IMG/VR virus record: IMGVR_UViG_2657245570_000017
Coordinates: 1-36,299 of that record
From: a virus
Taxonomy: Duplodnaviria; Heunggongvirae; Uroviricota; Caudoviricetes
Direction: 5' to 3' (one strand)
Length of the DNA stretch: 36,299 nt
Both the position numbers and the translations under genes were made by a program. The notes under the pieces were generated by a model, which was not told the origin of the DNA, did no database searches, and saw only the letters and a list, made by a program, of their open reading frames with translations. Shown here piece after piece: positions 1 to 13,548 of this stretch (positions are counted from its first letter, which is position 1; each line of letters opens with the position of its first letter).

Positions 1-1005
1 TTAATCCCCCGTGGACACTGCGTGGACACTCACGCCACCTTTCAGCGGATTAAGGGCCACCGCATCCTGCAGGTAATCCGGTGCAAAATGTGCATATGCC
101 ATTGTTTGCTGAATGGTTGCGTGGCCAAGAATCTTCTGAAGCGCAATAATGTTTCCTCCGTTCATCACAAAATGGCTGGCGAACGTATGCCGCAGCACAT
201 GTGCAGCCTGGCCTTTTGGTAAATCGGGCTTAACTCTTTTCAGCGCCAAGCAGAATTCCCGGTACTTCACCTCAAACAAGCCGCCTGTTTCTCTGGTTTT
301 GATCGCCTCACAAACTGCCTGCGAAATTGGCACTGTTCTCTTTCGGCCATTTTTGGTTTCAAGAAACGTCACTCGGTTATGAACTATCTGTTCACCACGG
401 AGCTTACAGGCTTCACTCCAGCGCGCTCCTGTGCTTAAACACAAAAGAGCAACACGCCAGTAATCGCCCTCCAATGTATCGAGCAATAACGCAACTTCCT
501 TCTGTGACAGGAACGCCATTTCTCGTGGAGATACATAAAGAATAGAAATTCCCCTTACCGGATGTTCTGCATCCCAAAGACCTATTTTTTTCAGCACGGT
601 AAACATTCCGGATAACCGATTCATGTACCTGTTAGCAGATGACGGTTTCAATCCATCAGCTATCTTTTGAGAACGCCACGCGATAATTTTCAGCTTATCA
701 AGATCCACAGCCTGCATATCAGCGCCAAGCTCATTGATTATGTTGCGCAGTTGTTTTCGGTCTTCTTCCGCCTTACGCCTGTGTTGACCGTGATACATCC
801 ACCACAACTCAAGCAAATCATTTAGCGTTCGGCGATCACGGTAGCCCTGTATATATTCCCGCTTTTCAGCGTTCGCCATGATGTAGCGTTCAGTGGCCAC
901 CGCTACCGATTTTTTGTCAAATACCTTACGCACGCGCTTTCCCTTGCGTCCGTTCGGCCTGATGTCCAGCAAATAACGACCATCTTCGAGCTTCTTAATT
1001 GACAT
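1..1005 (-). CDS. int: Tyrosine integrase, P2 Int-like
   Basis: 334 aa from ATG at 1005 with GGAGGG RBS; N-terminal MSIKKLEDGRY and C-terminal HTFASHF, ILGH, YAHF motifs match the P2 Int family as recalled; stop codon at 1-3. Confidence 0.9.
   Translation of the reverse strand: MSIKKLEDGRYLLDIRPNGRKGKRVRKVFDKKSVAVATERYIMANAEKREYIQGYRDRRTLNDLLELWWMYHGQHRRKAEEDRKQLRNIINELGADMQAVDLDKLKIIAWRSQKIADGLKPSSANRYMNRLSGMFTVLKKIGLWDAEHPVRGISILYVSPREMAFLSQKEVALLLDTLEGDYWRVALLCLSTGARWSEACKLRGEQIVHNRVTFLETKNGRKRTVPISQAVCEAIKTRETGGLFEVKYREFCLALKRVKPDLPKGQAAHVLRHTFASHFVMNGGNIIALQKILGHATIQQTMAYAHFAPDYLQDAVALNPLKGGVSVHAVSTGD
11..28. repeat. Putative attL core (direct repeat with 35119-35136)
   Basis: GTGGACACTGCGTGGACA here versus GTGGTCACTGCGTGGACA at the right end, 17 of 18 identical; lies in the last codons of int. 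Confidence 0.5.
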
Positions 1006-5455: not shown

Positions 5456-8278
5456 ATGACGACAGAGTACATCAGGGACTGGCAACAACCGCGCCACGCA
5501 GTAGGACGTGAAGGAACGGAGATCCCCGCACCTGAATCCGCGCTTTCCTCATGGCTGGATGCCTACCGGGTAGAGAACGAGCGCCGCCAGGAAATGGCTG
5601 ATGCGGCGTTCTCCGCCACACCGCTGGGCAACCTGATTAATAAAAGCCTGGACGCACAGGAAAAACAGGACAAAACCATCACACTGGCAGGAGACGCCAG
5701 AAAACAGGCACGCGGCGCGGTGGATGAAGCCATGGCCTCGCTGCGCCTGCTGCCGTCCTATCTGCGCGATCCGCTTATTCGCCACCTCTCCTTCCTGCGC
5801 AAAAAACAGGAAGCCGATCGCCGGAAAGGCAAAAAGAGCTGGCAGGCGGAACGCTATGCACGCGGAACCCTGCGCAAAATATTCGAACGTCTGGACCGCA
5901 CCGATCACCGCTGGCTGACACCGGGTTATCGCTCCCTTGCCGGACGCGAACGCCTGGACGATTTGCTTTACCTGCCGCAGCTCAACAAACACCAGATACA
6001 GACGCTGGCCACCATGACGGCGGCGATGTTCAGCAGCACCTTCGAAAAACTCTGCGATGGCTTTGGCGCGACCGATGGCGAGCTGACCATGGATGTAACG
6101 CTGAAGGCGTATCAGATGCTGGCCCGCATGGCGTTACACCTGCACGCCATGCCTCCACATTATGACGCACTGACAACAGACAAAGACCGGAGGAACGAAC
6201 CAGACACGGAGCTGCTGCCGGGCGCAATCCTTCGCCTGACCTGTGCGCAATGGTGGAAACGCAAACTGTGGCTGTTACGTTGCGAGTGGCGGGAAGAACA
6301 ACTCCGCGCCGCCTGTCTGGTTTCCAGAAAAACATCGCCCTATCTGAGCCAGGACGCGTTAAGCGAGTTTCGCGCACAGCGCGAGAAAACACGCGATTTC
6401 CTGAAAAGTTTCATGCTGGAAAATGAAGACGGGTTCACGATTGATCTCGAGACGGTGTATTACGCGGGAGTAAGTAACCCGGTTCACCGTAAGGCAGAAA
6501 TGATGGCCACCATGAAGGGACTGGAACTTCTGGCCGAAGCCCGTGGCGACAGAGCGGTGTTTCTGACTGTCACCTGCCCGTCAAAATATCACGCAACAAC
6601 GGAGAACGGTCATCCGAATCCCAAATGGAACGGGGCCACAATGCGCAACTCCAGCGATTACCTGGTTAACACGTTTTTTGCGGCGGTCCGCAAAAAACTG
6701 AACCGCGACGGTCTTCGCTGGTATGGCATCCGCACGGTGGAGCCTCACCATGACGGTACCGTACACTGGCATATGATGGTCTTTGCACATCCGGAAGAAA
6801 TCGACAGCATCGTGGCCATCACCCGCGATATTGCCATTCAGGAAGACCGCCACGAGCTGGGCAATGATATTACTCCGCGCTTTAAGGCGGAGTATGTCGA
6901 CGGCTCAAAAGGCACACCAACCAGCTATATCGCGACCTACATTGGAAAAAACCTGGACAGCCGCGCCGTGGATGGCATTGACCCGAAAACGGGCAAACCA
7001 CGCGTTGACCACGAAACCGGAAAATCAATGGCCGAGAGCGTGGAGCGCGCCATCGGCTGGGCGCGCCTTCACCGGGTCCGCCAGTTCCAGTTCTTTGGCA
7101 TCCCCTCCCGTCAGGTGTGGCGTGAACTGCGCCGCCTTGCCAGCCAGATGGCACGCAACCCGGAAGGCCCGCAACGACTGAAGGACGACGCAATGGATGC
7201 GGTACTCGCTGCCGCTGATGCCGGGTGTTTTGCCTCCTACATTGAAAAACAGGGTGGCGTACTTGTTCCACGCAAAGACTACCTGATTCGCACCGCCTAC
7301 GACCTCGCAGATGAGCTGAACGATTACGGCGAACAGAGTGTACAGATTTACGGGATCTGGTCGCCGCTCATCGGGGAGTCTTCCCGCGTGTGCACGCACC
7401 CGGATAACTGGAAGCTGGTAAGACGTAAACCGGAAGCGGAAGACAGCGCCCGCGAAAATGGTTTTGACCTTCAGGGCGGCCCTGCCGCCCCTTGGACTCG
7501 TGGCAATAACTGTCCCCGTGTACAGGAAACAGACAACAACGGGACAGAACAGCCGGAAGAACGGCCAGCACCGTGGCCGCAGCTTCCTGACGGCGTTGAC
7601 GTGAACGAATGGGTGCGCTCACTGAAACGGCACGAACGCCGGGCGCTGATGCGTTCGCTGCGTGACAAACAGGCAAAAAACAGCAGTGATGAAATGCAGA
7701 ACTGGACACAGAGCCGCAAACAGCCACAGCCTTTGCCTGATAACCACGAATTACTCGCTAAAGAATGGCGGGAGTCTGCTGAATCTCTCGGCCTGCATAT
7801 CGGTGAACAGCAGATGCAGCACCTGTTACGGGGCGGCAGTCTGTACGTTGACGGCAGCATCATTGCACCGCAGGGATTTGAAATTGTACGCAAACCGGAT
7901 ACCCGACCGGACAGCCGGATCACGCAGCTCTGGCAGCGCCTGAGCCGTAACCACGGCGTAAGCAGCACGGAGATCCGCCATAACCCGGTCGCCAGCTATC
8001 TGGAACAGCTGGGGGCATCAGACCCCGAAGCCGCCGCACGCCTGGCATCCACACTTCAGCAAGACCAGAACACCATGAAAACACCCGTTACCGTGCTTTC
8101 TGACATGCTGCGCGCCATCCGCGACGCAGAGCACGCACAGAGAATCAGTGAAACCACTGAACGCGCCCGCCGCAAAGCAGACCTGCTGCGGGGTGGCCTG
8201 ACCATTGGAAACAAAAAACAGACAGAAACGGGATTCACAAATCCCGTAAATGAGCAAAAAACGCGCCGCGATATATGA
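5456..8278 (+). CDS. A: Replication initiation endonuclease, P2 gpA-like, with long C-terminal extension
   Basis: 940 aa; HUH-type motif VHWHMMVF and paired catalytic tyrosines YIATYIGK; about 180-250 aa longer than the P2 or 186 A proteins as recalled. Confidence 0.85.
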   Translation: MTTEYIRDWQQPRHAVGREGTEIPAPESALSSWLDAYRVENERRQEMADAAFSATPLGNLINKSLDAQEKQDKTITLAGDARKQARGAVDEAMASLRLLPSYLRDPLIRHLSFLRKKQEADRRKGKKSWQAERYARGTLRKIFERLDRTDHRWLTPGYRSLAGRERLDDLLYLPQLNKHQIQTLATMTAAMFSSTFEKLCDGFGATDGELTMDVTLKAYQMLARMALHLHAMPPHYDALTTDKDRRNEPDTELLPGAILRLTCAQWWKRKLWLLRCEWREEQLRAACLVSRKTSPYLSQDALSEFRAQREKTRDFLKSFMLENEDGFTIDLETVYYAGVSNPVHRKAEMMATMKGLELLAEARGDRAVFLTVTCPSKYHATTENGHPNPKWNGATMRNSSDYLVNTFFAAVRKKLNRDGLRWYGIRTVEPHHDGTVHWHMMVFAHPEEIDSIVAITRDIAIQEDRHELGNDITPRFKAEYVDGSKGTPTSYIATYIGKNLDSRAVDGIDPKTGKPRVDHETGKSMAESVERAIGWARLHRVRQFQFFGIPSRQVWRELRRLASQMARNPEGPQRLKDDAMDAVLAAADAGCFASYIEKQGGVLVPRKDYLIRTAYDLADELNDYGEQSVQIYGIWSPLIGESSRVCTHPDNWKLVRRKPEAEDSARENGFDLQGGPAAPWTRGNNCPRVQETDNNGTEQPEERPAPWPQLPDGVDVNEWVRSLKRHERRALMRSLRDKQAKNSSDEMQNWTQSRKQPQPLPDNHELLAKEWRESAESLGLHIGEQQMQHLLRGGSLYVDGSIIAPQGFEIVRKPDTRPDSRITQLWQRLSRNHGVSSTEIRHNPVASYLEQLGASDPEAAARLASTLQQDQNTMKTPVTVLSDMLRAIRDAEHAQRISETTERARRKADLLRGGLTIGNKKQTETGFTNPVNEQKTRRDI
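8228..8247. promoter_or_regulatory. Palindrome 1, ACGGGATT-N4-AATCCCGT
   Basis: Perfect 8-bp inverted arms; lies in the 3' end of A, 127 bp upstream of the parM-like start. Confidence 0.5.
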
Positions 8279-8301: not shown

Positions 8302-8321
8302 CGGGATTTCAGAATCCCGTA
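8302..8321. promoter_or_regulatory. Palindrome 2, ACGGGATT-N4-AATCCCGT
   Basis: Second copy 74 bp downstream of the first, 34 bp upstream of the parM-like start, overlapping a promoter-like region. Confidence 0.5.
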
Positions 8322-8354
8322 AACGATTAATTAATCAACATAAGGAAAAGCGAC

Positions 8355-9314
8355 ATGAAAATTTGTATCGATGACGGCTCCACCAACATCAAGCTGGCAT
8401 GGACTGAGAACGGCGAACGCCGCAACGCCATCAGCCCGAACAGCTTCAAGTCGGAATGGTCTGCGCCGTTCGGTGGCACGCAGCCCGCGAACTACATGCT
8501 TGATGGCGTGCGCTATGGTTTTGATCCGGTCAGCGATCGCTTTGTCCAGACGACCGACACGCAATACCAGTACAGCGATGTGAATGTCATTGCCATTCAT
8601 CACGCGCTGGTCAAATCAGGCATCACACCACAGGAAGTGGATGTGGTTGTCACCCTGCCACTGAGCGAATATTTCGACACAAACGCACAGCCGGACATGG
8701 CCAACATCAACCGCAAAAAAGCAAACGTCATGCGCCCGGTGGCGTACCAGAACGGAAAAGCATTCACTATCCGTAACGTACGGGTTATGCCTGAATCCAT
8801 TCCGGCTGGTTTTAAAGCACTGGCTGACATGAGTCCGTTTGAATCCCTGCTGATTGTGGATTTAGGCGGAACCACGCTGGATGTGGCAAAGGTTCAGGGA
8901 CAACTGGCAGGTATCAGCCAGGTGTTTTGCGATCCACACGTAGGCGTTTCCCTGATGGCCGATGCCGTACTGTCGGTGATGGCCACTAACGGTATGCGCA
9001 CCAGTCACCACATCGCCAATACCATTATCGAACATCGCCATGATGAAGCCTGGCTGCGCCAGCACATCCACAATGACGCGCATTACGCCAGCCTGATGGC
9101 GGTTATTCGTGAAAAGGAAGAAACACTGAAACAACGCGTGATCCGCGCGCTGGCGGTTTTTTCGGGTTACGGGCGGGTGATGGTTGTCGGTGGCGGGGCG
9201 GAGATTGTGGCACCCGCTATCCGCGAAGCCTGCGGAGTTAATGCGACTTTCATCGCGGACGGGGTGCCACAATTTGCTCTGGTTAATGGGCTGTACGCAA
9301 TGAACAAGGAGTAA
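8355..9314 (+). CDS. parM: Actin-like segregation ATPase, ParM/StbA family
   Basis: 319 aa; MKICIDDGSTNIKLAW, ISPNSFK, YSDVNVIAIHHAL, MPESIPAG, LIVDLGGTTLD, VVGGGAE and LVNGLY are collinear with R1 ParM as recalled; AAGGA RBS. Confidence 0.8.
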   Translation: MKICIDDGSTNIKLAWTENGERRNAISPNSFKSEWSAPFGGTQPANYMLDGVRYGFDPVSDRFVQTTDTQYQYSDVNVIAIHHALVKSGITPQEVDVVVTLPLSEYFDTNAQPDMANINRKKANVMRPVAYQNGKAFTIRNVRVMPESIPAGFKALADMSPFESLLIVDLGGTTLDVAKVQGQLAGISQVFCDPHVGVSLMADAVLSVMATNGMRTSHHIANTIIEHRHDEAWLRQHIHNDAHYASLMAVIREKEETLKQRVIRALAVFSGYGRVMVVGGGAEIVAPAIREACGVNATFIADGVPQFALVNGLYAMNKE

Positions 9315-9318
9315 ACCA

Positions 9319-9630
9319 ATGACGACACCAACCAGAAGAATAAGTTTCTATCTGAAGCCAGCTGCCGTCAAGAACGAAGGAGAAGCATGCGCCTGGCTGG
9401 ACAGTCTTACACCAGAAGCCCGCAAAAGCGGCCAACGCGTGGCTTTTCTGGCCGGGCTGGCACTTCTGAAGACGAATCCGGCAGAGGCTTACCGACTGGC
9501 CGCATGGGCTGATGATGAGATGTTACCTGTGACACAAATCAGCTCAAAAAAGTTTGAAGCACAGTCTGCACCAGTGGCTAAGATAACCAGCCAGATGGCT
9601 GGGAATATCCGGGCGTTATTTCCTGAGTAA
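9319..9630 (+). CDS. ParR/StbB-like centromere-binding adaptor (putative)
   Basis: 103 aa, 4 bp after the parM-like gene, AAGGAG RBS; N-terminal region ISFYLKP...RVAFLAGLALLK resembles ParR; sits at the parR position. Confidence 0.5.
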   Translation: MTTPTRRISFYLKPAAVKNEGEACAWLDSLTPEARKSGQRVAFLAGLALLKTNPAEAYRLAAWADDEMLPVTQISSKKFEAQSAPVAKITSQMAGNIRALFPE

Positions 9631-9758
9631 AAGCATCTGCGCGAAAAATGCTCACGTTTATAGAGACAGTATCATTCCATTTGGCACACTTACTTCAATA
9701 ATCGATCTGTTAAACAAATAGATTGTCTATTATCTATCGATTAAAACGATCAATTATC

Positions 9759-9786
9759 TTGACAGTAATGTGCCTTTTTGTAAGAT
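9759..9786 (+). promoter_or_regulatory. Candidate sigma70 promoter with GATC in the -10
   Basis: TTGACA(9759-9764)-16 nt-TAAGAT(9781-9786); GATC at 9784-9787 overlaps the -10; two more GATC upstream at 9704 and 9748. Confidence 0.5.
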
Positions 9787-9835
9787 CGTTCGCATTGTGA
9801 GCGACAAGATAATTGCGCGGCATTGTCCATGCAAA

Positions 9836-9865
9836 ACGCCCCAATAGCAGCAACTATTGGGGCGT
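9836..9865. other. Perfect 12-bp stem hairpin in leader
   Basis: ACGCCCCAATAG-CAGCAA-CTATTGGGGCGT; a short T-run follows only on the minus strand. Confidence 0.6.
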
Positions 9866-9994
9866 AAAACTCGGTCGGACTCACTTAACCTGATATGCGT
9901 GCCTTCCGAAGTAAATCAAAATGTGCGTCGTATATTTTATTGCTTACACGCACCTCTGTAAAGGCACGCATATTTTTCCTATGAGGTAAATAAA

Positions 9995-10264
9995 GTGCGG
10001 GCTAAAACAGGTATTTGCAAGAACCCTCATCGTTATAATCCAACATTTCTGTCTCTCCCTGAATATCAAGGACAAGAAGGTCGGCACAAATGCGCTGCCT
10101 GTGCTTTTGAGCTAGGCATAAAAGATGCGCTTGAAGGACGCGCTATGGCTCAGAATGATTTAGTTTTAGCTAACATTCCGTTTAGCCAGGCTGGAACTGT
10201 AAGGCACAGAGATGCCTATGAAGCATATGTTCGTGGTTGGCGATTAATACACAGCAACAATTGA
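9995..10264 (+). CDS. Orphan hypothetical protein (89 aa), moron-like
   Basis: GTG start with GAGG RBS 8 nt upstream; own promoter and terminator; AT-rich context; no family recognised. Confidence 0.55.
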   Translation: MRAKTGICKNPHRYNPTFLSLPEYQGQEGRHKCAACAFELGIKDALEGRAMAQNDLVLANIPFSQAGTVRHRDAYEAYVRGWRLIHSNN

Positions 10265-10273
10265 TACTTTTGA

Positions 10274-10297
10274 AGCGCCGATAAGGCGCTTTTTTTG
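10274..10297 (+). terminator. Rho-independent terminator
   Basis: AGCGCC-GATAA-GGCGCT followed by T6. Confidence 0.75.
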
Positions 10298-10379
10298 TTT
10301 GCACGATAGTGCACAAGTTTGCACAATTTTTTTGAACGACTTTTTGTACTTCCGGCCCGCGTGGTGGCTGGATCCGTCA

Positions 10380-10620
10380 AGGATCCGTACGTGCACAAAA
10401 AAACGCGTTTTTTCTGCGCGCAGGTGACGGGGGAACAGCCCGCGTTTCAGGGGGTAAATAGCATCCCCTGAACGATGTCGCAGCAACACAACAGAATGGC
10501 TGTATTTCTCACGCTGAGCGTGAAAAAGACGTGAGGGCTTTTGATTTGATGGGGTGGCAGATAAGGCCGTCAAAATCGCACTGAGGCGGCGAGAACATGC
10601 AGTCAGCGCGATGGGATTGC
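10380..10620. other. Putative cos packaging region
   Basis: Non-coding interval 3' of the portal gene, as in P2; palindrome AAAAAAACGCGTTTTTT (10396-10412); GGATCCGT direct repeat; G-rich GGTGACGGGGGAACAGCC (10423-10440) and GAGGCGGCGAG (about 10590) loosely resemble the P2/186 cohesive-end sequence as recalled. Confidence 0.35.
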
Positions 10621-10750: not shown

Positions 10751-11797
10751 TCAGGATGTGGGCTGGGTGTCCAGCAGTGCGTAAGGGTTAAAGCGGATCA
10801 CCTCTTCGCCAAGCCAGTCATTGATGTGCTTCATAGCCTCCATGACGGGCATCAGCTCGTTAATTGCGTAAACCCGCGCGGCCTTCTCCACATCACCAAA
10901 CGCACTTTTTTCGCCCGGCATTGCCCCCATCAGTTGCGGCGGAACGCGGTGCGCAGCCAGCACATCATCACGGGATGCCGCCTTAACATTCATGAACTCA
11001 TCCTTTGCGGTGATCTGCTGGAACGGCAAAATTTGCACCCCCTCTTTGCCCCCGTTGGGCGCGTGGATGAGCACGTTTTTAAACGCACCACCACCACGCG
11101 CACCCTGTAACGTTTCTTTCAGGGAGTCCATGCTTTCGCGGTTTACCTGCGCTGCACCGATGTAGATGATGCACCCGGCGTGGGATCCGTTGTCGTAATA
11201 CAGTTTTCTGAACATGTCCGCCGAATGAGACAGGCTGGCCGAGAGTAATGCGCCAAGATATTCCGGCATGCCGTAAATTTCCTGGTTAATGTCCGGATTC
11301 ATCAGGTGGCACACTTTGCCAGGGCGAAACTGAAACGCGTCCTTGCCATCCTGCACATACCACCATGATTCAAGATCGCTTCCGCGTCGCATGTATTTCG
11401 CCAGTGCGTGCCGTAATTTAAGTGGTTCGCCGAGCATATTGCTCCGAAGCTCAAGGAATGCGTTACCGAACACAAACCAGTCCAGCGCCAGCGCCGAGAA
11501 ATCCTGCCGGGAAAGCAGCGGGTGCGGGATGTAGCAACCGAGCAATACATTGCGCTTAAAGTAAAGCGCAGACTGATGCCAGGACGTTTGCCGGGCGGCT
11601 CTTGCCAGACCGTACCAGTCCACCGGGGTTTCATACCACCGCCCGTTATCAGCACAGTACATATTGTCCAGCAGGTCATGCCCGGTCAGGCGATAAGGAC
11701 CATCAAATGTGAATGCACTGAGCGATGATTCTTTCCTGAGCGCATCAGCGAGATCAATGCGTGAACTCATGCGCACTTTTTTATTTTTTCTGCTCAT
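10751..11797 (-). CDS. Q: Portal protein, P2 gpQ-like
   Basis: 348 aa, leftward, overlaps the terminase gene stop; size and position match gpQ. Confidence 0.8.
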   Translation of the reverse strand: MSRKNKKVRMSSRIDLADALRKESSLSAFTFDGPYRLTGHDLLDNMYCADNGRWYETPVDWYGLARAARQTSWHQSALYFKRNVLLGCYIPHPLLSRQDFSALALDWFVFGNAFLELRSNMLGEPLKLRHALAKYMRRGSDLESWWYVQDGKDAFQFRPGKVCHLMNPDINQEIYGMPEYLGALLSASLSHSADMFRKLYYDNGSHAGCIIYIGAAQVNRESMDSLKETLQGARGGGAFKNVLIHAPNGGKEGVQILPFQQITAKDEFMNVKAASRDDVLAAHRVPPQLMGAMPGEKSAFGDVEKAARVYAINELMPVMEAMKHINDWLGEEVIRFNPYALLDTQPTS

Positions 11798-13548
11798 CAG
11801 AACTCCATAACCGTGAAACGCTCGTTTTCTCCTTCGCCGCCAATTGGTTCGTTAATGACAGCAAGCATGGTTGCCCACGCAAGGTCGCCGTGGCTGATCC
11901 CCCTCGCGCGGTCCGTTTCGTAAGTGATAAAGCCGCCCGGTGTTTTCACCTTACGCACGGCGTTAAAGGCCGCGACCAGCTCGCGTTCGGCGCGATCGTA
12001 TTCCCACCGTCCGGCACGCATTATTTGCAGCATTTTCAGTACCAGCGACCGTTTGGATGACAGCGTGAAGGTGTACGGAATAGCAGCAGGGAAAAACCGC
12101 TTCACTATCTGATAAACAGCCTCCCCGTTCCCGCCCGTCACATCAATGCCGATGTGTTCCACGTTGTAGCGACACGTGAACTCTTCAATGACTCTGGCCT
12201 GTTCTTCAAACTCCAGCCCCTGAACGCGTCGCGTCTCCACCGTTCGAAAACGGCCACCAGGAACAGCCGGAGGAACCACCACGGACACAGCGCCGCTGTC
12301 GCCGTTGCCACTGCTGCCGTTTGCGTCATACCCAATCCATACCGGACGATTCCCCATCGGGCGGGGAGCAAAAGGTTTCCAGTCTTTCCAGTCGTCGTAT
12401 CCGTCAACACCGCAGCCAATCAGGATATTCAGGTTAAATGCCGATTCCCCTTCGCGGACAAACTCACACATATAGAGATTGCGGAACTCGTCTTCGGTGT
12501 TTTCATCACGAATTTCGTCAATATCGGTGTGTTTCCAGCCGTGATTAACCACATCTTCCAGCGTGACAATTTGCCGCCACGTCCGGTCAGGGCAGATAAG
12601 CCCGTTATGCAGCGTTTTCCAGTCCACAGAAAAACGCTGGCGTTTATGCGTGGCCTTTTTCTCGTTCCAGCGGTCGCCGTTCCAGTAGGCGTATGCCTCG
12701 TGCGTTTCGGTGGATGGCGTGGAGAAGTAGGTGCGCCGCAGTCCGCTGAGGGTTGCCATAGCGCCAGCCACCTTGCGCAGTTCAGCAAAGCGGCTGACCC
12801 AGAAAAATTCATCAAAATAAAAATTGCCCGTGTAGGACTGTGCCGTCGCAGCAGAAGTACCAAGAAAATGCAGCTCTGCACCGTTGGAGAGGATGATTTT
12901 ATCGCCCCCTTTCAGCTCCACATCAACTTCAGATGCAGCCTTCTGAATAATGCTTTTAAACTGGAACGCCTGACGACGCGACGCAGACAAAAAAATCTGG
13001 TTACGCTGGTAAGGTTGTGCCACATCGTCACGCAGTGCCATCAGCAGTGCTTCCTGTGCAAAATACCAGGTCGCCCCAATCTGTCGGGATTTCAGGATCA
13101 TCCTGTTACGTATCCCGGCTTCCCTGCAAAGGGTCAGAGAGTCAAACCAGCCCCGCTGATGCCACTCCAGCCTGCTGATGATTTTTTCCCGCAGTGCGGC
13201 AATCTGTTCCGGCGTGAAATGATTTTTGAGTTTTTTCGCCCGGCTTTTCTTTCCTGTGGCCGTCGCATCCGGCTGGCCATCATGCAGTTTTTTAAGCTGC
13301 CGGGTCAGCAGGTCTATTTCCTTGAAGTCACCACCTGTTTTATTCTGTTTTTCAGTAAGCTGGATGAGGCGCGCATCGATGGACTGCGTGACACGCTGCA
13401 CGGGTGGTGTTTCATCCCACTGGTCGCGTTTTTTCCACGCATAAATCGTGTTCGGGTTTATTCCCATCAGACGTGATATTTCTGCGGGCGGATAACCCTG
13501 CCAGTAAAGTTGCCGCGCACGCTGGCGCACAAAAGCGTCCTGAATCAT
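11797..13548 (-). CDS. P: Terminase large (ATPase) subunit, P2 gpP-like
   Basis: 583 aa, leftward, divergent from the capsid operon. Confidence 0.8.
   Translation of the reverse strand: MIQDAFVRQRARQLYWQGYPPAEISRLMGINPNTIYAWKKRDQWDETPPVQRVTQSIDARLIQLTEKQNKTGGDFKEIDLLTRQLKKLHDGQPDATATGKKSRAKKLKNHFTPEQIAALREKIISRLEWHQRGWFDSLTLCREAGIRNRMILKSRQIGATWYFAQEALLMALRDDVAQPYQRNQIFLSASRRQAFQFKSIIQKAASEVDVELKGGDKIILSNGAELHFLGTSAATAQSYTGNFYFDEFFWVSRFAELRKVAGAMATLSGLRRTYFSTPSTETHEAYAYWNGDRWNEKKATHKRQRFSVDWKTLHNGLICPDRTWRQIVTLEDVVNHGWKHTDIDEIRDENTEDEFRNLYMCEFVREGESAFNLNILIGCGVDGYDDWKDWKPFAPRPMGNRPVWIGYDANGSSGNGDSGAVSVVVPPAVPGGRFRTVETRRVQGLEFEEQARVIEEFTCRYNVEHIGIDVTGGNGEAVYQIVKRFFPAAIPYTFTLSSKRSLVLKMLQIMRAGRWEYDRAERELVAAFNAVRKVKTPGGFITYETDRARGISHGDLAWATMLAVINEPIGGEGENERFTVMEF

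Follow-up and report, generated by a model that had tools for sequence, protein, structure and literature searches.

A single-gene cargo cassette of P2-like prophages with a predicted sense/antisense control region and relatives beside GATC restriction-modification genes

The element described here is a cassette with one gene of 89 amino acids (aa; gene X, encoding protein X) at positions 9640-10297 of IMG/VR virus record IMGVR_UViG_2657245570_000017, a stretch of 36,299 nucleotides (nt) that was analysed whole and is called the window below. Its closest counterparts in design are the control of the IS10 transposase (pIN/RNA-OUT plus Dam) and finP/traJ of F-like plasmids. The likeness to these systems lies in a GATC within the sense -10 hexamer, in an opposing promoter in the 5' region for a short antisense RNA, here predicted, which ends in a hairpin and is complementary to leader sequence, and in expression that would stay very low unless the methylation state changes. 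The locus differs from both in that X is neither a transposase nor a transfer activator, and in that the predicted antisense RNA misses the start codon and covers the leader 68-163 nt upstream of it. This comparison draws on what is known of IS10 and finP and not on sequence similarity, and Dam dependence is, for the locus described here, a prediction.

Other described systems share further parts of the design. The type I loci hok/sok, symE/symR and ralR/ralA are likewise compact mobile modules with a long folded leader, a sequestered ribosome-binding site and a cis-antisense promoter within the leader, and hok/sok of plasmid R1 also has a partition system adjacent. X differs from the products of these loci in being an 89-aa, soluble, probably zinc-binding protein rather than a hydrophobic peptide, in having relatives that stand unregulated in restriction-modification (R-M) operons, and in having no sequence similarity to known toxins. 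The accessory genes of R-M systems (those for C proteins, and dpnA of the DpnII cassette) resemble relatives of X as small genes inside methylase/endonuclease operons; X is often the gene immediately before the endonuclease or, like dpnA, stands between it and the methylase, and like C genes it is combined with several methylase and nuclease families. Unlike C proteins, X has no helix-turn-helix (HTH), and it coexists with a canonical C protein (locus L024) and with HTH-bearing methylases; unlike DpnA, it is not a methyltransferase. The genes old, tin and Z/fun of P2 share with the cassette a P2-like cargo hotspot, AT-richness and independent transcription, but X has no sequence or domain relationship to them. 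We know of no antisense and GATC control described for old, tin or Z/fun.

We read the cassette as a Dam- and antisense-gated DNA-recognition module derived from R-M systems, and put the probability of this reading at about 0.45. The features on which it is built are as follows.

9640-10297: cassette with the 89-aa gene X, 658 base pairs (bp)
9698-9757: AT-rich imperfect inverted repeat with 26-nt arms, 73% complementary; GATC at 9704 and 9748
9704, 9748 (7 nt upstream of the P(+) -35) and 9784-9787 (overlapping the -10, TAAGATC): GATC sites
9759-9786, plus strand: sense promoter P(+), TTGACA (9759-9764), 16 nt, TAAGAT (9781-9786), with 10 of 12 consensus matches
9793-9994, plus strand: predicted structured 5' leader of about 200 nt, its start placed from the -10
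9813-9820/9827-9834, 9836-9847/9854-9865, 9892-9905/9961-9974 and 9923-9932/9945-9953, plus strand: leader helices in the predicted fold
9836-9847/9854-9865, minus strand: perfect 12-bp GC-rich hairpin, an inverted repeat that is terminator-like on the minus strand, then UUUUG
9893-9905/9961-9973, plus strand: long-range leader stem ATATGCGTGCCTT / AAGGCACGCATAT, a perfect 13-nt inverted repeat
9962..9934, minus strand: antisense promoter P(-), TTTACA (9962..9957), 17 nt, TAAAAT (9939..9934)
about 9927 to about 9832, minus strand: predicted cis-antisense RNA of about 95 nt, both ends estimated
9981-10030, plus strand: translation-initiation region, sequestered in the predicted fold
9995-10264 (stop included), plus strand: gene X, 89 aa, GTG start; GAGG at 9983-9986, 8 nt upstream
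10272-10297, plus strand: intrinsic terminator, GAAGCGCC-GATAA-GGCGCTT then a T-run; 8-bp GC-rich stem at 10272-10292

An earlier note on this DNA, made from the sequence alone, had described the near-consensus promoter TTGACA-16-TAAGAT with a GATC over its -10, the perfect hairpin at 9836-9865, TGCGTG/CACGCA repeats, the open reading frame with its GTG start and GAGG ribosome-binding site, and a clean terminator. Each of these is present at the positions listed; the TGCGTG/CACGCA repeats turn out to be part of the 13-nt inverted repeat, which encloses an inner hairpin (9923-9953). The note had missed P(-), the terminator-like character of the hairpin on the minus strand only, and the link of the protein family to R-M systems. 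What it called a long structured leader does fold better than shuffled sequence, and is better read, from sequence comparison, as a conserved sense/antisense control region.

This reading draws on the conservation of P(-). We gathered 164 related loci from genomes and viral contigs, in which the solitary clade of Enterobacterales and Orbales is represented by 55 distinct upstream sequences. A minus-strand TTTAC[AT]-17-TAnnnT was found in all 55, positioned 34-47 nt upstream of the start codon; the 17-nt spacing was exact throughout, and the -10 hexamers came in 11 different forms. When 22 sequences were aligned, the invariant columns in this part were exactly positions -12, -11 and -7 of the minus-strand -10, plus GTAAAG (the -35). 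The motif was absent from relatives in R-M operons, where there were a few chance matches to TTTAC[AT] without a TAnnnT -10.

A GC-rich hairpin was present in all relatives downstream of P(-) on the minus strand, at a distance of 30-45 nt (62 nt in the window). Hairpins were compared by a search in each sequence separately and by a gapless alignment of 8 sequences; a MAFFT alignment misaligned them and was unusable for RNAalifold. The separate searches recovered 31 distinct versions at the same relative position. In the gapless alignment, 8 of 13 pairs were changed on both sides, 98% of cells were paired and none of 500 shuffles reached this covariation, a result to be read with some circularity in mind, as the alignment was built from the very structure under test. 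Several G-U pairs of the hairpin exist in the minus-strand reading only, the minus-strand version was the more stable in 16 of the 22 sequences, and the flanks are A-runs on the plus strand and U-runs on the minus strand. The most likely role of the 12-bp hairpin is that of a 3' hairpin in an RNA from the minus strand, and its likely kissing target is the complementary hairpin in the mRNA.

The leader thus read would probably also make an antisense RNA of about 95 nt. This predicted RNA folds with a minimum free energy (MFE) of -36.8 kcal/mol (z -3.9) and is fully complementary to the leader from 9832 to 9927, including the 5' arm of the long stem. An antisense RNA that pairs with the mRNA, as expected of a type I locus, is predicted here in silico from P(-) and the co-varying hairpin. 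Rfam contains no family that reaches its gathering threshold for the predicted RNA, here or in 12 related loci. Minus-strand Rfam matches to ctRNA_pGA1, sar and Spot 42 (19-22 bits, against cut-offs of 43-80) reflected the hairpin only and were not taken as membership.

The sense side of the region is conserved too. A promoter scan of the region gave 2 matches where 2.0 were expected by chance; a single match is at chance level, and the significance of P(+) therefore comes from conservation. In 28 of 31 diverged representative relatives there was a TTGnnn-16..18-TAnnnT with a GATC no more than 12 nt upstream of the -35. By eye we saw no LexA box upstream of P(+), and the CTGT...ACAG palindrome of close variants has the wrong spacing. 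The leader itself folds on the plus strand with an MFE of -76 kcal/mol (z -3.3 against shuffled sequence); plus-strand fold energies were the better ones for the first stem in 17 of 22 sequences and for the downstream leader in 19 of 22. Within the predicted fold, AUGAGG with the Shine-Dalgarno sequence (9981-9986) pairs with CCUCAU (10025-10030), and the start region (9993-9998) with 10011-10016. In most relatives a small hairpin, formed locally and immediately 5' of the start codon, hides the Shine-Dalgarno sequence instead. Hairpins analogous to the terminator were found 3' of the stop codon in loci L002, L003 and L004.

A separate observation concerns strain CH4793 (locus L167), where an IS1 is inserted at 9917-9924 with an 8-bp overlap, which places it a few nt past the predicted start of the antisense RNA and cuts gene X off from its sense promoter.

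The leaders are also rich in GATC. Across 22 representatives there were 3.6 GATC per 260-nt leader, where dinucleotide shuffles gave 0.86, and the density of 13.8 per kb compares with 2.25 per kb in flanking DNA (about 6-fold); GATC is the commonest 4-bp palindrome in the leaders. Several positions are fixed relative to the conserved TGTAAA: a GATC is found near the antisense start (about -36) in 27 of 31 relatives and within the P(-) spacer (-7) in 17 of 31, with further fixed positions near -180 and -140, at P(+). The IS10-type arrangement, a GATC in the sense -10 facing an opposing antisense promoter in the 5' region, is found at this locus. By analogy with IS10 and finP, we infer that Dam methylation would gate the promoters.

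What protein does the cassette encode? The earlier note had recognised no family and had proposed sensitive homology searches and structure prediction. No Pfam, NCBIfam or PADLOC family does match X (0 PADLOC families), and it has no similarity to old, tin, fun or any known toxin; X is nonetheless a member of PHROG 3941 (unknown function; E 6e-49) and of a large unnamed family. A word-indexed search with the single protein returned 2 near-identical clusters only, and exhaustive phmmer and profile searches were needed: phmmer gave 172 relatives among representatives at 50% identity, and the profile search at least 1600 clusters at 90% identity, from many phyla. A Pfam match to an O-methyltransferase dimerisation domain (E 0.06; 13.6 bits, cut-off 25.6) was dismissed as noise.

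Four residues, arranged as C8-x3-H12 and C33-x2-C36, are invariant in alignments of 47 and of 118 sequences and are likely to form a zinc site, which we call putative. A duplicated Q..RH motif is invariant as well (Q25/R30/H31 and Q65/R70/H71), and the two halves of the protein align to each other as pseudo-repeats, LPxxQGxxGRHKCxxCA and IPxSQAGxxRH. An AlphaFold2 model computed from the 118-sequence alignment reached a predicted local distance difference test score (pLDDT) of 89 and a predicted template-modelling score of 0.82, with four helices, short strands and the CHCC motif; the model made from the single sequence (pLDDT 44) was uninformative. The searches that the note had proposed thus yielded a large family and a good model, but no PDB match: neither PDB nor BFVD contained a match to the model, and no solved zinc domain matches. 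A likeness to ribosome modulation factor, suggested by weak BFVD matches, was rejected (hhalign probability 3.7%). X has an isoelectric point (pI) of 9.2, a net charge of +3.8 and a grand average of hydropathy (GRAVY) of -0.57. Its maximum Kyte-Doolittle value over a 19-residue window is 0.58, and it has no membrane segment. Neither Pfam nor the AlphaFold2 model reveals an HTH, unlike the HTH_3 or Xre-type C proteins; X does not show the strong acidity of the DNA mimics ArdA and Ocr and has no Pfam match to their families; nor did we find an enzymatic or effector domain.

The genes around relatives of X provide the strongest functional lead, a link to GATC methylation and restriction. We counted neighbours at 80 loci from species-representative genomes of many phyla. 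A DpnII-family (GATC) endonuclease lay within 3 kb of X in 33 of the 80 and a D12 (Dam-like) methylase in 43, and these two were the commonest families among immediate neighbours. Thirteen loci have a same-strand methylase-X-DpnII operon with gaps of less than 60 nt. Other arrangements are X - D12 methylase - PDDEXK_11 nuclease in L031, a canonical C protein followed by X with a convergent DpnII gene in L024, and, on a Lactiplantibacillus plasmid, adenine methylase - hypothetical - X. The X domain also occurs in fusions, N-terminal to HNH_2 and NOV_C nucleases and C-terminal to DndB-like and WYL proteins. Defence-type neighbours of X relatives comprise R-M genes, HEPN, DUF2971 and AIPR. To judge from these contexts, the X family seems to be a part of GATC-specific R-M systems that has gone unrecognised.

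Loci without a nearby methylase come mostly from Enterobacterales, Orbales, Vibrionales and Alteromonadales. These orders are known to carry Dam; outside Dam+ gammaproteobacteria, X is an operon partner of Dam-like methylases and DpnII or a domain in fusion proteins. The X gene of the window is of this kind, solitary and outside any R-M operon.

Two observations on the R-M loci stand apart. A Chitinophagaceae island (L020, 1329-4993) encodes a D12 methylase, DpnII, a 176-aa protein, a DndB-X fusion, an N6_N4 methylase and an X-X-NOV_C nuclease, and so has two different X-domain proteins in one R-M island. Some 30-70 nt before the methylase start, loci L030, L033, L037, L045, L051, L052, L057 and L064 have a common promoter motif GGTATTGCTATTATTCGAGTTTTAGAATATAAT with the inverted repeat TATTC-N8-GAATA; the methylases of these operons have an N-terminal excisionase-type HTH, and the motif is a probable autoregulatory operator. 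The idea that X substitutes for a C protein was weakened by such methylases with their own N-terminal HTH and by L024, which has a canonical C protein plus X.

On the reading we prefer, the cassette would work as follows. P(+) would transcribe the folded leader of about 200 nt together with gene X, stopping at the terminator, and P(-) would transcribe the opposite strand to give the cis-antisense RNA ending at the hairpin (9865..9836). This RNA would pair with the leader, probably first by loop-loop contact at the shared hairpin, and the pairing, added to the sequestering of the Shine-Dalgarno sequence and of the start codon, would keep translation of X off or very low. Through the GATC sites at the promoters, transcription would depend on how far Dam has methylated the DNA, as it does in IS10 pIN/RNA-OUT and finP/traJ. 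X would be a small, probably zinc-binding, internally duplicated (pseudo-dimeric) module that elsewhere serves as a component of adenine-methylation R-M cassettes, mostly with a Dam-like methylase and DpnII, and also as a nuclease-fused domain. We infer that X recognises DNA in a manner linked to adenine (GATC) methylation status. Phages of Dam+ hosts could then carry X alone, because host Dam would supply the methylase in trans, presumably to some benefit of the phage.

Several findings weigh against this reading. The stem of the minus-strand hairpin is followed by only 4 T in 8 nt, and by UU(U)CCC in most relatives; with this short U-tail the hairpin fails a terminator scan, and it is uncertain where the antisense RNA has its 3' end. 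Part of the conservation of the promoters and of GATC reflects the common descent of the relatives. The window and its closest variants lack both of the P(-) GATC sites common to most relatives and retain those of P(+) only (9748 and 9784, plus 9704), and the promoters of methylase-X-DpnII operons contain no GATC. These operons already have a regulator, so X is not simply their controller. As for the protein, the case for zinc consists of the four invariant residues and that for DNA binding of gene context and fusions; the family has a median pI of 6.5; and all its members are unnamed, each a 'hypothetical protein'.

The setting of the cassette is that of phage cargo. The window is a P2-like prophage, about 99% identical over 9640-10297 to Escherichia phage 520873 (Peduoviridae, Xuanwuvirus), with these genes around the cassette.

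5456-8278: replication endonuclease, an open reading frame of 940 aa
8355-9314: ParM
9319-9630: ParR/StbB-type protein
10751-11797, minus strand: portal gene
11797-13548, minus strand: terminase gene

The cassette thus occupies the gpA-gpQ interval, between the replication endonuclease and portal genes and after parM/parR. The earlier note had placed it in the post-A cargo region, and this interval is indeed a described cargo hotspot, whose contents include known defence genes and genes of other functions, e.g. partition genes and cdt (Rousset 2022, PMC9122126). The exact gene trio of this locus, StbA, Plasmid_stab_B and WP_001594304, appears 23 times among the hotspot contents in the supplement of that paper.

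That the cassette is a self-contained moron, as the note had also suggested, agrees with its distribution: 166 of 5426 complete Escherichia coli genomes (about 3%) carry it, all on the chromosome and 95-100% identical, O157:H7 and O111 strains included. The slot between parR and the portal gene is filled by different genes in other parMR prophages. Homologues of X with 55-61% identity occur singly, each in an orientation of its own, at well-known moron sites of lambdoid phages. A P22-like Salmonella phage has its copy downstream of cI, and a Providencia phage and an Arsenophonus phage-plasmid have theirs on the opposite strand, between Q and the lysis genes; a version of the lambdoid type was found in 21 further E. 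coli genomes. A frameshifted X copy in phage 503458 was left out, many genes being fragmented in that record. The GC content of the cassette region is 36-45%, against 52-60% in the phage backbone, which bears out the AT-richness that had been noted. An autonomous, AT-rich single-gene cargo cassette in the P2-like gpA-gpQ hotspot is therefore supported.

Several side observations concern the neighbouring DNA. In the record of phage 520873 the replication endonuclease region is split into three coding sequences, probably by frameshifts in that record. The gene parM is present in 1303 of the 5426 E. coli genomes (1441 chromosomal places against 2 on plasmids), and a 34-kb record typed as a plasmid, NZ_CP148288, also carries this parMR, a hint that these prophages may at times exist as plasmids. 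Comparison of L119-L123 with 8355-10264 of the window indicates a mosaic boundary at the parM/parR junction, with ParM 97-99%, ParR about 50-54% and X about 59-63% identical, and about 90% identity over some 70 bp upstream of the sense promoter. In E. coli O157:H7 LSU61 (L169, 3962-5341) the same slot holds a gene for a 280-aa hypothetical protein and an opposite-strand gene for a DUF4760 protein, a possible two-gene system. Two copies of GGGATTyCAsAATCCCGTAAAyGA (8230-8253 and 8304-8327), located where the replication gene ends and immediately before parM, each contain a palindrome, GGGATT...AATCCC, and are a candidate parC centromere or ParR operator. We set aside the AT-rich 9640-9760 as a parC centromere, the repeats upstream of parM being the better candidates; that reading was also weakened by the recurrence of the promoter and leader architecture in lambdoid phages without a parM/parR match. 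Downstream of the terminator, towards the presumed cos, 10297-10420 contains TGCAC-rich repeats GTTTGCACGAT / GTTTGCACAAT, with GTGCACAA and GGATCCGT occurring twice each. C4 antisense RNA and isrK were matched at Rfam gathering level about 1-2 kb from the cassette in the lambdoid or phage-plasmid relatives L145 (1259-1457) and L004 (5145-5328), and are unrelated to the leader RNA.

The main rival, which we consider unlikely, is a type-I-like toxin-antitoxin pair acting by post-segregational killing: X would be toxic and the antisense RNA its unstable antitoxin, and the pair would stabilise the prophage or a plasmid form of it, or bring about abortive infection. The architecture is that of type I loci, with a long folded 5' untranslated region (UTR), a sequestered Shine-Dalgarno sequence and start, and a cis-antisense promoter in the leader. 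The mobile cassette directly adjoins the ParM/ParR stability module, a parallel with plasmid R1, which carries both parMRC and hok/sok. The IS1 that splits the gene from its promoter in one strain fits too, if anecdotally. Nearly all type I toxins, however, are small hydrophobic peptides, typically of <60 aa with a transmembrane helix, and X falls outside this description with its 89 aa, its hydrophilic composition and its lack of a membrane segment. Soluble type I toxins do exist, SymE among them. RalR (PMC4041452) is a further one. With these exceptions, the lack of hydrophobicity lowers the toxin claim without excluding it. In R-M operons X is co-transcribed with methylase and endonuclease and has no antisense promoter, and such unregulated presence argues against intrinsic toxicity. 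The open reading frame is, moreover, intact and 95-100% conserved in the 166 genomes.

Less probable still is a single-gene phage-exclusion or defence effector, made from the prophage against superinfecting phages. The earlier note had offered this as a candidate function, alongside a regulatory one. The gpA-gpQ hotspot does house known defence genes (PMC9122126), the position downstream of cI in lambdoid phages is a rex/bstA-like slot, and relatives lie in the defence-type neighbourhoods given above. But the hotspot also houses non-defence cargo (partition genes, cdt), no PADLOC model matches X, and X is without an enzymatic or effector domain. The control features suggest tight repression and not constitutive expression in the lysogen. 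We found no direct support for an exclusion or defence function; a 'regulatory moron' is compatible with our results.

It is also very unlikely that X is a restriction modulator captured by phages from an R-M cassette, inhibiting DpnII-type endonucleases or stimulating Dam-type methylation of unmodified DNA. The Ral protein of lambda acts on EcoKI in such a modification-stimulating manner. X is more often beside a D12 methylase than beside DpnII, its solitary copies are concentrated in lineages known to be Dam+, and GATC-bearing promoters would permit expression on under-methylated DNA, a feedback loop. Against this, X is found beside or fused to four unrelated nuclease types (DpnII, PDDEXK_11, NOV_C and HNH_2), a poor fit for a specific protein inhibitor, and, with its pI of 9.2, is no acidic mimic of DNA. 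The enterobacterial plasmids of PLSDB yielded no DpnII-family endonuclease, which likewise weakened the idea of X as an anti-DpnII weapon of enterobacterial phages.

Improbable to a similar degree is a plain structured 5' UTR without an antisense RNA, in which the hairpin and repeats are a sense stability element, attenuator or protein-binding site and the P(-) motif is conserved otherwise, e.g. as an RNA motif: the overlap of GTAAAG with the 3' arm of the long-range leader stem, the preference for the plus strand in two of three helix regions and the weak minus-strand U-tail fit it, but -12, -11 and -7 are the only invariant positions of a freely varying stretch, exactly 17 nt from TTTAC and with 11 different -10 hexamers, the hairpin wobble pairs fit the minus strand, and the hairpin, having A-runs rather than U-runs beside it on the plus strand, cannot act as an attenuator of the sense transcript.

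A gene of the P2 hotspot known only as 'hypothetical' is now given an architecture and a new candidate small RNA. Its widespread family, with at least 1600 clusters in many phyla, is unnamed and lacks both a Pfam model and any structural relative, solved or predicted. More speculatively, and on balance doubtfully, X may be the first representative of a new class of small zinc modules, pseudo-dimeric in build, which sense whether adenine in GATC or comparable sites is methylated. R-M systems would use such modules as accessory or nuclease-targeting domains, and phages of Dam+ hosts would have placed one under an epigenetic switch, in which opposed, GATC-studded promoters and a cis-antisense RNA limit synthesis to un- or hemimethylated DNA, as at entry, induction or rapid replication. 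If X is an RNA-restrained toxin, it would join the few type I toxins that are soluble. If X reads or modulates adenine methylation, it would be a new player in R-M biology and in Dam-dependent epigenetic control in enterobacterial phages.

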